A DNA stretch of 64,000 nucleotides from positions 1 to 64,000 of the forward strand of contig KZ538269.1 in NCBI GenBank assembly GCA_000934665.2. The letters are read 5' to 3'. This DNA is from Catajapyx aquilonaris. Lineage: Eukaryota. Below, piece by piece: positions 13,501 through 52,500 of the stretch; position 1 is the stretch's first letter, and every line of letters begins with the position of its first letter. Both the position numbers and the translations under genes were made by a program. The notes beneath the pieces were generated by a model. The model saw only the letters and a list, made by a program, of their open reading frames with translations. It had not been told where the DNA came from and did no database searches.

Positions 13501-16500
13501 GGCAGGCGTACACTTAACCATGTGTGACCAAATCCCCTGGCTCAAAATGCTCACATTAGTTATTAAATCATGTAAGTGTACAAAAAATTCCTGACACTGG
13601 AAATTAAAAACTAATCTCAGTTCAGCAGTTATCCCAGTAGTAAATTCACTTCCTTACTATGGATAACTACTCCAATTGAGATCACCACTGAAAGGAATAG
13701 TCCTAAAATGCGTAGCACATGTTCTACAGTTTTGGCTAAGGCAACCCTGAAGGAAGAGCGTCTTTAATGGGTGCCGGCAGTGTTTTACCCAGATGCTGCA
13801 CCATAAATCAGCGCTGCACTGGACCTACACACTGCATTACATTTACTAAAACTGAACACCATATGGTCAAGACCACACCTGTCCCACGCATAACAACATT
13901 TCATAATGCATCACATAATTGAGTCCCCCAATAAATACATACCAAGCCAAGCAAATTGACAACATGTGGGTAAAGTCGACCTTGCCGCCACACCTGTCAA
14001 ACAAACTGATGTAACTCACCGCAAGGGGAAGTCCATTTGCCTGGTGGTGCCAGGAATCCCTGAGAAAGGCATGCTGGGGCGTGCTGACCGACTACGGCTT
14101 CTCCTCTCCATGGCAAAATCTACTCTCAACACGACGCCTTCGAATTCATAACCAGACAACTGGTTCACAGCTCTGCGGGAGAAAAAATTTAGAAAATTAG
14201 CAGGTGACACCCTGGCAATTTAAATTCATCCGCACTCACTGTTGAGCTTGTTCCTGAGTTTCGTAAGTGACTTGAAATGCTTGGGTATTGGCTCCATCCT
14301 TGGCTGCGAGCTTCTCGCACAGCTGGACCGTCCCAAAGTTGGCCAGGAGAGGTTCCAAGTCCTCAGGTCTCACGTGTGCAGGTACATTGCTCACCAGGAC
14401 CCGGCAGTTTGCGCTGCAGGATGACAAACAAGAAACGAATAAGCCCATTGCACTGGACACTTGCCACCACTAGGAAACGTGGCATCACTGATTCACCTTG
14501 ACTTTTTTTTTCTCTCTCTCTCTCTCTTACTCTCTTGCCCCTCCCCCATCCCAACATCAACCCACACCCCCACAGTAAGAAGATATGTATGGCATTTCCT
14601 GAGGTACCAACAGCTCCTTTTAAACAGTGGGATGCAGCACATTGCAATCACCAAACATTCCTCAGCAAACCGGATTTAACGCCATGTCACTCCCTTGCTG
14701 ACCAGCAATCACAGAAATAGAACTGGAGGAACTTTCCAGGATGTTCCAGTATGTTTCAGAACAGATGTTTCCCCCCACTTCTGGACATATCTTGTAAATG
14801 AAGATATATTTCCGTTTCATATTTATTCATAGATCGACTTGAAAGGGGCGCACGTTGCCATGTCCTGTCCGGTCAATGGTCGCTACCGCCTTCTTCCCCA
14901 CATCTTTTTTTGTCCAACTCCCTCCCTCATCCCCCTTCCCTCCCCCCCTTCCCCAGACTTCGATCGTCTCTCTGCCTTTGCTTCCTCTCCTAAAGAGCAG
15001 GTATCTGGGCAGTAGTAGTAGTAAAGGAGAGATCCTCGTGGCCTCTGGGCCATCCTCTCTTTAAAACCCAACGGGGATTCCCCGGTTTTCCGCTCATATT
15101 CGAGCCATATTGGGTCCATTAGCTAAGAAAAACATTTTTACGCAAATACAAAGTAGTCCACAGGGCAAGTGATAAGTTTGTTCACCTCAGATACAAGCTT
15201 GCAACGAGATGCTTCACATTCCTGTCATACGATCCTATCTTTGAACTGTGGGCAGTGCACTGCACTGTAACATGAGACGTCAATGTAATATCGCGATCTG
15301 AATAGTAACCCCCTCCAAGCAATCGTATTTCTGGCCAAGAACCTGGCGTCAACCTGTACTTCACGAGATTTGCGCCGATTTGAGGCGGTCGATTGCAATT
15401 ACATGATCATACCACGAGATTACACCCCTAGTGTACATGTAAGGTCGCATTTGCTTCGTCTGTAGCTGTCAACAACTGTAACACGGGCAGGATGTGCTGA
15501 TGACACGAATGTTTCCATGGGGGAAAATAAATATTCATTTTCGCAATTTCCTCCGCAATTAGCAGTGATTAAATAAAGGTCAGGAGTTTCCTAACAAACA
15601 AAGTTGTGTAAACAGCCAGCTTACTAGCCAGCTCCGCATTTCAGATTCCTCCAAAGTGCTGCATCAGGCCAGGTAAGTTTTAGACACCCCCCAAAAAAAA
15701 TTACACAATTGGAGCAGCTGCAAGTCTGCGTCACCTCAAATCATTATACACACCAGGTGGTCCTAGATAAACACCGTTTCACGAAGCAAAACCTCCAGCA
15801 ATATATGACCAAAAAACCTCGCACAAGTCATTGCAAATCATCATTAAACCCGGATTTTAAATTTTAAAATTTTGCTATTAATCCCACGCCAGCTACTGTC
15901 CCAATATCATACGTTTTTCGGCCATTTTCTCGCAATATTTTTAAATTTGAAATATGCGTATGATCCGCAATTACTCTCGTTTGTTTCCCCATTATTCTTT
16001 GCTATTTCCTACACATCTCTTATCCAAAAACTCATTTTCGGTTCACTTTTCTGACGCGCAACGACGGGAAGGCCCCCCCAACCCAAACCCCAAAAAGAGA
16101 GAGAGAGAGAGAGAGAGAGAGAGAGGACCCNNNNNNNNNNNNNNNNNNNNNNNNNNNNNNNNNNNNNNNNNNNNNNNNNNNNNNNNNNNNNNNNNNNNNN
16201 NNNNNNNNNNNNNNNNNNNNNNNNNNNNNNNNNNNNNNNNNNNNNNNNNNNNNNNNNNNNNNNNNNNNNNNNNNNNNNNNNNNNNNNNNNNNNNNNNNNN
16301 NNNNNNNNNNNNNNNNNNNNNNNNNNNNNNNNNNNNNNNNNNNNNNNNNNNNNNNNNNNNNNNNNNNNNNNNNNNNNNNNNNNNNNNNNNNNNNNNNNNN
16401 NNNNNNNNNNNNNNNNNNNNNNNGGGGGGGGGGGGGGAACAAAAACAACTCCCACTATCCTTAGATGACCAGTTTGTCTGTCGGAATTACTTCCAACCAA

Positions 16501-49500: not shown

Positions 49501-52500
49501 TAACACTTACAAGCAGAATATTTACTTGGTTTTTACATGACTTACAGCAAGTAATTAAATCATCGTTTCATTGTGTGGTCGAAACCGCTTTGGAACCCCG
49601 AAAATAACATTTGACGGAAATAATTGACAGCCTCAAATACTACAAAACTATCATTTTTACAACAGAGCAGTCAGCAAACATTTTCGACCTCTCAGATCAT
49701 TTGTTATCGTTTAGAACCTGAAGGGACCGCTGCGCTGCATTTCAGTCCGTTTGCAAGCATATAACCACCACCGGCAATAAGCCTCGATCCTAACGAATAA
49801 AACATCCTTAGCCCCCAGAACCCTCCTCCCCATATAAACCCAATCGCCATCACTCATTCCGGACTTTGAAGCAAACAAGCGCCAATCCCATCCGAAATGC
49901 AAGCGGCGGCGGCCAAGACCCGCGGAGCGTCACCCGCCATTTTGGCTTCATGCAAATGGCGGGACCCATCGGATCGCATCGTATCCCAACAGAGGAGAGC
50001 TGCATGAGGCAACACTTTTCCACAGTAAACTTATACGAACAATTCGATGCAATTGCCAACATAATAGTTTTACACCCATTCGAAACATTTATTTCAAAAA
50101 CGAGTGGACCACTTGATATTGTAAAATGTACACTGCACGTGCTCACTACAATAAAACTACCGGTATCCTAATAACTACGATTAACTACAGTATGTGTAAC
50201 TGGACTGATGGCACCATAGTGTGATTTGTACTTAATATCTTAATACTACTCTATTACTACAAGCCAGTTCACGTCCTAATTCAATTTACCTCCGTGAACC
50301 TCTGGTCGTAGACGTTTGGAAGCACTTCTGCCCTGTCCGTCTTGAAAACGCGCTTTCCACACGATTCTTGGCTGTCGCCTTGCATTACGTGGGTGATTCT
50401 CTCACTTCGCTGCCAAAATGTCCTCAACTTGCTGTCTCTCATCCTTTTCCGCCATTCTTTTAACACTCCAAATGGCTGTGTGTAATACTCGTCGAGCCAT
50501 TTTTTGCTAACAGTGGAACCCAGAGGAACTTATTTTCATTACAGAAACGCATCTTCTTCGTACTGTTTGCACTGTTTAACTCTTAACACGTACCCTACTA
50601 GTACTGTATCGGTTCATTTGACAAGGAGCTAACAAGATCACTGGAAAACCCAGTGCGTCTCAGCTTCAACCGAAACATATTGTGCACGCCTTGCAACATG
50701 AATCGTCTTTCTGTCCATTACAGTACCTGAATACAAAGCCCTGAAGTACACAGTATAATTTTGTTGCAACTGACAGCCACATTTAAAACTACGAAAGGCA
50801 AAGGCGCCGAAGGCCTCAATTTCTCCAGTAAAAAAAACACTGTTCTTCCGCCAAGCACACCTATCCACACTGCCGCTTCTTACAGGCACCCCACAAAAGA
50901 AACACGTGAAGCGGGATTTCCCTTTTAATGTACCTCGCACTGTAAATAATTACAGTACATCGCCCACTTGCAAGTTCAGAGAACCTGCATCCGGGCAAAA
51001 AACACCAATTCCAATTTTTCTACGAATGGATATATTTAGCCCCCATTGTGGCTCCAACCTTGCTAACCAATTTGAGCCGAAGGCCGCTTGGCTTACGTTG
51101 CATAACTCATCTTAAAAATTGGCACATTTGGCACAGGTGTACACCTGCCAACCCCCGCCGAATCTCCCCCCAAAAAATGGAAGAATATATCAGGGGACGA
51201 GTCATTACAGGGCGGCTCCTCACACGTGCCCGGGACCATGTCAAGCACCATGCAAATGAAGGCACGGGGGCCCCTTGGTCTGCTGACACACACAGGAAAG
51301 GAGAAAATAAGAGGAGAGAGACAGAGCCACCTTTTCTCCCGATCGGCCAAGGGAAGGGGTGGGCAGCTGCAAAAAGGCATCCCTCCCCGATATTCGCGGA
51401 ATTGACCGGTTTGACCACTGACCCCACTGACCAACCCGGACCGGACACAGCTCGTTCACCCCTATGGAATTTTTCTTTGAACGCCGGGGCTTACCAAGAG
51501 GGTGGGTTTCTCAAGACCTTACTCAATGAAAAGGGGGGTGAGGTCTTCCCTCACTTGAGGGGGGGGTTTTTTAAAAATAATTATAACTAGGGCCCCCCCC
51601 TGTGTCAGAATGAGTTGGCTGTTTTCGTGTGCAGGTGAAAACATGACGGTGTCATTCTAGTGATTTGTTTTACTGAGTCTTCACAACCCTACATGCGCCT
51701 ACAAGGTGAACTGCGAGTCGGGCTTGATCCACTTGCGAATTTTTTTAAATATCTTGCTGGGGCGATGCCCATCATTTCTGGCCATACCTCCAAAAAAACC
51801 GCTCGGGGCCGCTACGTATGTTGTTGTCGGGGCTGCAATTGACACACAAGACAATCACGTACACCGAAACGGGGTCGTACCACAATAGCCTTTTTTTATA
51901 CAAAATAAAGAGTGTCGGTAATCCTGTAACAATGTTCCTGTTTTTTTTTTATCCCACCGACAAATTATCCGGCATCTGTAATGTCATATTCTTAACTTTC
52001 TCCATTATTGTCGGATTAGCAATAATCCCGACAGCCAGGTTTGTGTTACGACCCGTTTCCAGCATGCAATTACTTCACACACACACACATTCAAGCCCCA
52101 GTAGCATACGCATTCCTTCATGCAATAATTACCTCCTCTTTGCTCCAGTCGCCGCAACCGAAGGCTCCACGACTAGAGATGATCCCATAAAGTTGAAACC
52201 TGCAATATACAAACAGGAAGAAACAGGGCTGTAGAACGTATTACGCAAAACACATGGCACAAAAAAAATCTGCGACGAAACATAGTCAACCACGCAATAT
52301 CAGTATCAAGTGTCAGCCTCCGAGGACTCTCCCTGGAGCAAAAAATAGACCATTAAATGTTGCTATTCGTCCAGTTGGCCGGGTCAGCATGTGTGGGACA
52401 TTTTTCCTCTGCAGGATCGAACGAAATATAACGAGGGCATGTGGGTGTTCATTTCCTGTCGCCAAATCCGGGATCAAAAAGAAAAGGAAAAAAAAAAAAA

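Follow-up and report, generated by a model that had tools for sequence, protein, structure and literature searches.

In this report we have tried to focus on one question within a long stretch of DNA, the first 64,000 nucleotides (nt) of contig KZ538269.1 of Catajapyx aquilonaris (the window): what might a gene do with a second intron that dwarfs everything around it? The gene is a complete Imp/IGF2BP gene on the minus strand, whose product carries two RNA-binding RRM domains and four KH domains in the order RRM1-RRM2-KH1-4, and its intron 2 separates the exons that encode RRM1 from those that encode the rest. We argue that a short segment deep inside this intron, at 27801/27786-27755, is probably a genuine alternative first exon that this organism uses to make a protein without RRM1. 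The huge intron, in other words, probably harbors promoters, through which the gene can produce Imp either complete or short of its first RRM.

What kind of gene this is can be read from several directions at once. A bee protein of 623 amino acids (aa; P0030) aligns colinearly with the window by tblastn over residues 1-566, with zero residues missing between exons 2 and 3, and Pfam places RRM_1 on exon 1 (E 1.8e-13), RRM_1 again on exon 3 (E 0.0015, which is below the curated cut-off) and KH_1 on four separate exon groups. Taken together, the Pfam and tblastn results give the two N-terminal RRMs followed by four KH domains that characterize the IGF2BP/Imp (VICKZ) family. The likeness is also specific to IGF2BPs as against other KH proteins: among solved structures, the KH4 exon is matched best by the KH34 structures of IGF2BP2 and IGF2BP1 (E 1e-23 to 2e-21), with Nova/PCBP at 1e-11, and the closest protein among the relatives listed, a cockroach protein named IGF2BP1 (P0117), is identical at 409 of 507 residues (80.7%) over the aligned exons. 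Judged by this closeness to insect Imp proteins, the source would therefore be an arthropod-like animal.

The arithmetic of the first exons matters for what follows. Exons 1 and 2 contribute 175 + 67 = 242 coding nt (that is, 80 codons and 2 nt over), so exon 3 begins in phase 2; exon 2 ends in ...AAGAGGAG|GTAATT at 52133, and past the exon-3 acceptor (...CCTGCAG| at 14413) the first exon base completes the codon. Exon 3 is 55% identical to residues 82-138 of P0030, and the KH-encoding exons continue down to ~10488. Intron 1 is 4,159 nt long, intron 3 is 67 nt and intron 4 is 587 nt (the latter two confirmed by spliced RNA contigs), one later intron measures ~1.3 kilobases (kb), and the remaining introns are predicted to be short. 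The boundaries of intron 2, its size of 37.7 kb and the phase-2 start of exon 3 are just as an earlier preliminary description of this DNA had given them, with the qualification that the length is a minimum or an estimate because of the assembly gap within it. The canonical junction from 52133 to 14413 is predicted from colinearity with the relatives. Coordinates of the features are collected in Table 1.

Table 1. Features of the Imp gene and the candidate first exons of its intron 2, in positions of the window
Feature	Position	Strand	Description
Exon 1, coding part	56359-56533	-	first two thirds of RRM1, ...AIDKLN+G; 80% identity to P0030 (tblastn); donor ATG|GTAAGA
Exon 2	52133-52199	-	67 nt; end of RRM1, ... 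+ AG; ends in phase 2; donor GAG|GTAATT
Intron 2	14414-52132	-	37,719 nt, GT...AG; 293-N gap at 16131-16423
X2 record 12 cover	27906-28149		244 nt, 0 mismatches, same organism; candidate 5' untranslated region of the alternative exon
Candidate 1 (probable alternative first exon, coding part)	27755-27801	-	47 nt; ATG 27801 or 27786; M(YEEAM)AAAAAPEDA + AG; donor GAG|GTAATG
Candidate 2	21258-21319	-	62 nt; donor GGG|GTGAGA; sequence as described
Candidate 3	18179-18225	-	ATGs 18225/18189; ATG 18189 in ACCACCATGT context; donor TAT|GTGAGG
Exon 3	14240-14413	-	174 nt; start of RRM2, first residue (S); acceptor common to isoforms
Exon 4	14020-14172	-	RRM2 (with exon 3)

Two public RNA runs, which we call X1 and X2, were brought to bear on the intron by aligning their contigs on 13300-33299 at 90% likeness; such contigs cannot reveal transcription starts, and stretches without cover are uninformative. 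X2 is a run without a recorded kind that holds 63% of the words of 4500-14499, and one of its contigs (record 7; 1,454 nt, 0 mismatches) is spliced as 13345-13432 / 14020-14172 / 14240-14356, so X2 is RNA of the same organism. X1 is an invertebrate metatranscriptome that holds 7% of those words, and its record 1 (835 nt, depth 60) is spliced as 13345-13427 / 14020-14172 / 14240-14416; the spliced contigs of both runs connect 14240 to 14172. Record 1 of X1 is ~95% identical to the window in exons 3-5 (~5% differences), and 9 of the 13 listed differences there are synonymous and 4 are not. This mostly synonymous pattern indicates that X1 carries the related, functional gene of a close relative.

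It is the far end of X1 record 1 that carries our argument. Past the exon-3 acceptor, this contig has 27 more letters that are absent from the adjacent intron. Together with three letters that it shares with the window at the acceptor, they read in sense AGCA ATG GCG GCT GCG CCT GAA GAA GCC AG, then exon 3, and the joined frame encodes M A A A P E E A S-ANCR... Where do these letters come from? Over the whole window and both its strands, the place that fits them best in local alignment is 27789-27755 (GCG ATG GCG GCT GCG [GCG GCT] CCT GAG GAT GCG AG|GTAATG), which scores 17.25 when the next best place scores 12.5. The stretch that follows the ATG agrees at 23 of 26 aligned bases, the alanine run holds a single in-frame gap of 6 nt, and all three mismatches fall on third codon positions; the match sets ATG on ATG and ends at the last exon base before the GT, in the right phase. 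On the side of this organism, ATG 27801 has a weak context, and ATG 27786, the same ATG that occurs in the X1 contig, stands in the context GAGGCGATGG, with a G at both -3 and +4. The donor, GAG|GTAATG, hardly differs from that of exon 2, GAG|GTAATT.

Could all of this be nothing functional, a chance ATG...GT string to which an assembly chimera happened to point, or an exon that the X1 organism alone employs? Intron 2 has by chance 698 phase-2 segments of this sort, the donors of the candidates are mediocre (just 4/7 consensus positions in all three candidate segments of Table 1), X1 is a metatranscriptome aligned at 90% likeness, and when the 27 letters were shuffled, 1 of 40 queries reached 17.0 (0/40 reached 17.25). 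Against these points, in a scan anchored at the end of the query over 7,119 GT sites on both strands (background mean 1.0, standard deviation 1.3), 27755 ranks first, with the ATG, the phase and the GT all falling exactly where an exon would need them. The second rank in that scan is the same locus shifted by 5 nt, and the highest-scoring independent site is 42245, at 11.25; the donor of exon 2 (52133) lies outside the top 12, so the 27 X1 letters are not exon 2. The site, moreover, had been named from sequence before any RNA was looked at, its ATG, frame and donor are intact here, X2 cover lies 105 nt upstream of the ATG, and the same layout is common in relatives, as will be seen below. We therefore regard this explanation as quite improbable.

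The independent site at 42245 deserves a word of its own. It closes an ATG-initiated phase-2 segment at 42245-42272 on the minus strand (ATG GCG ACA GCC CGG TAT GAG TCA GAC AG|GTATAG), whose start (AGCAATGGCG) resembles the X1 leader, at an end-anchored score well under the 17.25 of the leading site.

A junction does not make an exon a first exon, and here the evidence is of another kind. An in-frame TGA at 27843-27841, upstream of the exon ATGs, closes the frame, so that translation can start only at 27801 or 27786, and from either ATG the frame is stop-free to the donor and fits exon 3 in phase 2. The X2 contig of record 12 lies ~105 nt upstream of ATG 27801, with a T15/G7 low-complexity run between them that could break assembly, and an 80-nt X1 contig lies on 27921-27959 with 3 differences. 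Both would suit a leader of putative strand and continuity whose start lies at 28149 or farther upstream, and in this indirect way the X2 contig at 27906-28149 supports use of the alternative exon in this organism.

One might still imagine that the exon is real but not first: either a cassette exon, internal or of the “poison” type, or a downstream piece of a leader made of several exons, transcribed from the canonical promoter or another distant one. The 27 letters of X1 are all that is known upstream of the junction, contigs are mute about starts, and the T15 run followed by GAAAG at ~27880-27860 could act as an acceptor. A reading that came in phase 2 from exon 2 through that acceptor, however, hits a stop before the exon ATG (read by eye), and the TGA already mentioned closes the frame of the exon itself. 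Relatives annotate such N-termini as protein starts, and the X2 RNA immediately upstream follows the genome without a break and with 0 mismatches. On this balance an internal exon seems to us unlikely, and we prefer to think of 27801/27786-27755 as the start of a message of its own.

Three other observations belong to this neighborhood. CACGTG E-box hexamers at 27894-27899 (upstream) and 27719-27724 (in the intron just past the donor) flank the alternative exon. An X1 joint of 17706->27860 was set aside as unreliable, having a side of 20 and GG..AA ends in sense at 90% likeness. X1 record 4 (26979-27095, 98% identical) was judged uninformative, there being no canonical splice site at its break.

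Short Imp proteins of this kind are annotated in many insects. In the protein search with P0030, 8,000 candidates were scored, 881 proteins reached E <= 1e-30, and the N-termini of the best 120 of those 881 were classified by a simple pattern match. By this pattern, 47 of the 120 start with RRM1, 5 have only exon 1 replaced, 45 have all of RRM1 replaced by a short unrelated N-terminus before the first RRM2 strand, and 23 were missed. Read by eye, the 23 comprise a further 12 of the RRM1-replaced kind, 1 with only exon 1 replaced, 5 that start after both RRMs, 1 with an alternative exon joined to exon 4, 2 of full length and 2 that are unclear. In the RRM1-replaced proteins the join lies 2-5 residues ahead of the RRM2 strand K/R-[IV]-x-[IVL]-S-N, the same junction as at 14413: the shared part starts in relatives as TGG|KIVLSN or (S)SGVA|KVLVSN and here as (S)ANC|RVLVSN. 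Five of the 45 lie on Logan contigs of 2.4-4.3 kb that hold proteins of 531-604 aa, and from these sizes they would be transcript-derived. One ant (isoforms X5-X11) has four different RRM1-replacing N-termini, the cockroach species of P0117 has two RRM1-less isoforms (P0174, P0176), and the N-termini of some relatives are just 6-8 residues long (P0189, P0090).

Several annotated insect isoforms (P0155, P0151, P0159, P0163, P0164 and P0184) are without both RRMs; such RRM-less isoforms begin at a Met close to where the exon-4 equivalent ends (MS(S/T)AESRRRG...), except that P0155 joins an MSLDK... exon straight to the exon-4 equivalent. One protein without RRM1, P0050 (596 aa), was set aside because it may be a faulty gene model. 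Exon 3, used as a word-search query for longer proteins, gave no match at E <= 0.001 among 7 candidates. With exon 3, a HMMER search of representatives returned 72 hits; of the 28 examined, most are single-exon open reading frames (ORFs) from genomic contigs that read through into intron at the N-terminus, which makes them useless for isoforms. A metagenome scan matched 409 stretches, and the one locus it confirmed (16 residues on a 263-kb contig) was judged irrelevant.

We should be plain about what weighs against our reading. The junction has been seen in one contig of one metatranscriptome run, X1, which comes from another organism, and with 27 letters upstream of it only. There is another X1 contig that matches 27758-27790 and whose sequence to either side is unlike that of the window, from which it follows that alanine-codon-rich sequence recurs in X1; we have taken this contig for a chance match of such sequence. 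In X2, the run of the same organism, there is no junction onto 14413, record 7 ending at 14356, 57 nt before that acceptor. Record 12 is neither strand-assigned nor joined to the exon; it may stem from pre-mRNA or from some different transcript, since intron 2 has other X2 contigs scattered through it, and a leader contiguous with record 12 would hold 5 upstream ATGs. The CpG content of 27801-28200 is only at about the top 11 of the 400-nt windows and far under that of the canonical promoter (56200-57400 was the region compared), and a transcription start is something that contigs cannot show. A tblastn search of the window with 44 alternative N-terminal peptides gave E of 0.009-0.04 at best, with none of the matches at a usable donor, so that homology of the exon to the N-termini of the insect isoforms was not found among these peptides; no such match is expected, because the leaders are short and fast-evolving.

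The preliminary description had gone further than a single exon. It had proposed that intron 2 hosts an array of alternative phase-2 first exons, naming three ATG-to-GT segments (27801-27755, 21319-21258 and 18225/18189-18179), all of which are found in the sequence exactly as it described them, and it had cautioned that 38 kb will yield some phase-2 donors by chance. The caution was well placed. Counted on the sense strand of intron 2, stop-free ATG...GT segments come to 698 for phase 2, 762 for phase 0 and 727 for phase 1, and those with a donor at >=5/7 consensus positions (at least five of the seven) number 25, 27 and 26 in the same order. An enrichment of phase 2 is thus rejected, and with counts at the chance level the claim of three or more phase-2 first exons draws no support from the statistics.

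Might candidates 2 and 3 nonetheless be used as first exons, completing the array? Relatives with up to four N-termini per gene, some as short as 6-8 residues (P0189 and P0090 again), make one look for more, candidate 3 has a ACCACCATG context and, 100-130 nt upstream, two sites that resemble the cyclic AMP response element (CRE), and there is some X2 depth (0.71) in the bin 17969-18635, which contains it. Against this, no junction from candidate 2 or 3 is among the X1 and X2 contig joints listed for 13300-33299, and candidate 2 has no X1 or X2 cover in the two bins of 20637-21970. The segment counts, as we have said, are those of chance. The CRE-like sites are TGACGTCA at 18308-18315 and GACGTCAC at 18292-18299, and TGACGTCA, which occurs twice in the window, occurs >=2 times (at least twice) in 10/100 shuffles. 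Near candidate 2, a stretch at 21323-21276 on the minus strand is weakly like the end of an ant alternative N-terminus (..ENVNGKHTCKLQD; 9/16 residues, E 0.036 with 44 queries), and we rejected it as probably chance, since its frame differs from that of candidate 2 and there is no donor at the matching place. Candidates 2 and 3 are most likely chance, and use of the full array appears to us quite unlikely.

Two details of candidate 3 may be recorded for themselves. The only two perfect TGACGTCA palindromes of the window (18308-18315 and 20079-20086) are both in intron 2, and the second CRE-like site (GACGTCAC) is 9 nt from the palindrome at 18308-18315.

Of the array, then, one member stands by virtue of its X1 junction, candidate 1, and the other two, lacking cover or a visible junction, do not. 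The idea that went with the array, an RRM1-less isoform beside the full-length protein, holds up in kind, through the X1 junction and through the same swap in annotated insects. As for junctions landing on 14413, which the preliminary description had proposed to list, the RNA contigs give the one from 27755 in the close relative of X1 and none in X2, whose contig stops short of the acceptor. Further alternative first exons may exist in intron 2, as the relatives suggest.

The rest of the intron can be described briefly. An Rfam scan of intron 2 gave 0 matches, and a Pfam scan of 12 intron ORFs of 145-234 aa on both strands found no domain; these 12 were drawn from 38 stop-to-stop ORFs of >=110 aa; 6 of the 38 do no more than bridge the N gap, leaving 32 that are gap-free. 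The gap, at 16131-16423, is bordered by an (AG)15 run. There are three tandem repeats, among them one at 28512-29063 with a 161-nt AT-rich unit repeated 3.4 times at 74% matches, 360-900 nt upstream of the X2 contig beside the alternative exon. No repeats of the candidate regions were found elsewhere within the window, and the CpG profile has no distinct island at any candidate. At 17470-17706 and 19029-19209 there are several X2 contigs, with depth up to ~50 and many loose ends, which look like a transcribed repeat family.

Beyond the intron, two regions downstream of the coding exons were noted. The 63% of sampled words of 4500-14499 that X2 holds fits, for 4500-10488, a 3' untranslated region of several kb beyond a stop near 10488. 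At 1400-2900 on the minus strand, downstream of Imp, lie G+C-rich open frames with long GGN/Gly runs, which may be a neighboring gene.

What would the cell do with such an exon? A promoter inside intron 2 would give a messenger RNA (mRNA) whose short first exon supplies an ATG and ~11-16 codons; this exon would be spliced in phase 2 onto the constitutive acceptor at 14413; and the product would be without RRM1, the work of exons 1-2, and would keep an intact RRM2 and all four KH domains. That the exon has its own promoter, is used in this organism and yields protein is what we infer; the junction in X1, the intact ATG, frame and donor here, the X2 cover upstream and the layout in annotated relatives are what can be pointed to on contigs and gene models. 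For annotation, this argues for a second protein start at 27801/27786. For Imp biology its value is modest, the layout having already been modeled in many insects, and it suggests how the RRM-less Imp of flies could plausibly have arisen. To call the gene an intermediate state towards RRM loss, as the preliminary description did, is speculation.

The nearest comparison is with insects, and it is a close one. Annotated isoforms of Anoplolepis gracilipes (X5-X11), Temnothorax curvispinosus (X3-X6), Formica exsecta (X1/X2/X4), Bombus flavifrons (X2), Periplaneta americana (X3/X4) and Lycorma delicatula (X3; all NCBI names) have, in place of exons 1-2, an unrelated N-terminus of 6-48 residues joined just before the first RRM2 strand; they too have several alternative N-termini per gene and keep RRM2 and KH1-4. 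They differ in that their N-terminal peptides are not recognizably related to M(YEEAM)AAAAAPEDA and in that they are gene models. The arrangement described here is a further example of this layout and is not new, even though a literature search (main texts) found no paper on RRM1-less insect Imp isoforms.

Mammals offer short forms as well. The mammalian IGF2BP1 isoform called deltaN-CRD-BP, which goes back to Fakhraldeen (2015, J Biol Chem), is reported to start in intron 2 and to lack both RRMs. That it is an N-terminally deleted isoform is stated in the introduction of PMC5300761. Mammalian IGF2BP2 has p58, which, according to PMC3299737, is a natural protein without RRM1 and with RRM2 and the KH domains, as our predicted product would be; it differs in that, by the same account, it comes from the same mRNA by leaky scanning to Met69 and involves neither an alternative promoter nor an alternative exon.

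Drosophila Imp brings the comparison to its end. As set out in PMC2242817, it has no RRMs, and its gene gives multiple transcripts with two N-termini, so that the polypeptides differ at the N-terminus and share the KH domains. In this it is like the gene described here; it is unlike it in being RRM-less, whereas the present gene keeps both RRMs in the long form and would keep RRM2 in the short one. If one steps back from the single locus, it is possible, and we offer this tentatively, as something we would not yet expect to be true, that RRM1-less Imp from intron-2 promoters is an old and conserved arthropod program, perhaps even a bilaterian one to which the short mammalian IGF2BP forms belong. 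The RRM-less Imp of Drosophila would then be an end state, reached after loss of the upstream promoter and the RRM exons, and the short isoform, in place of the six-domain protein of the textbooks, would be the product that evolution has held constant.

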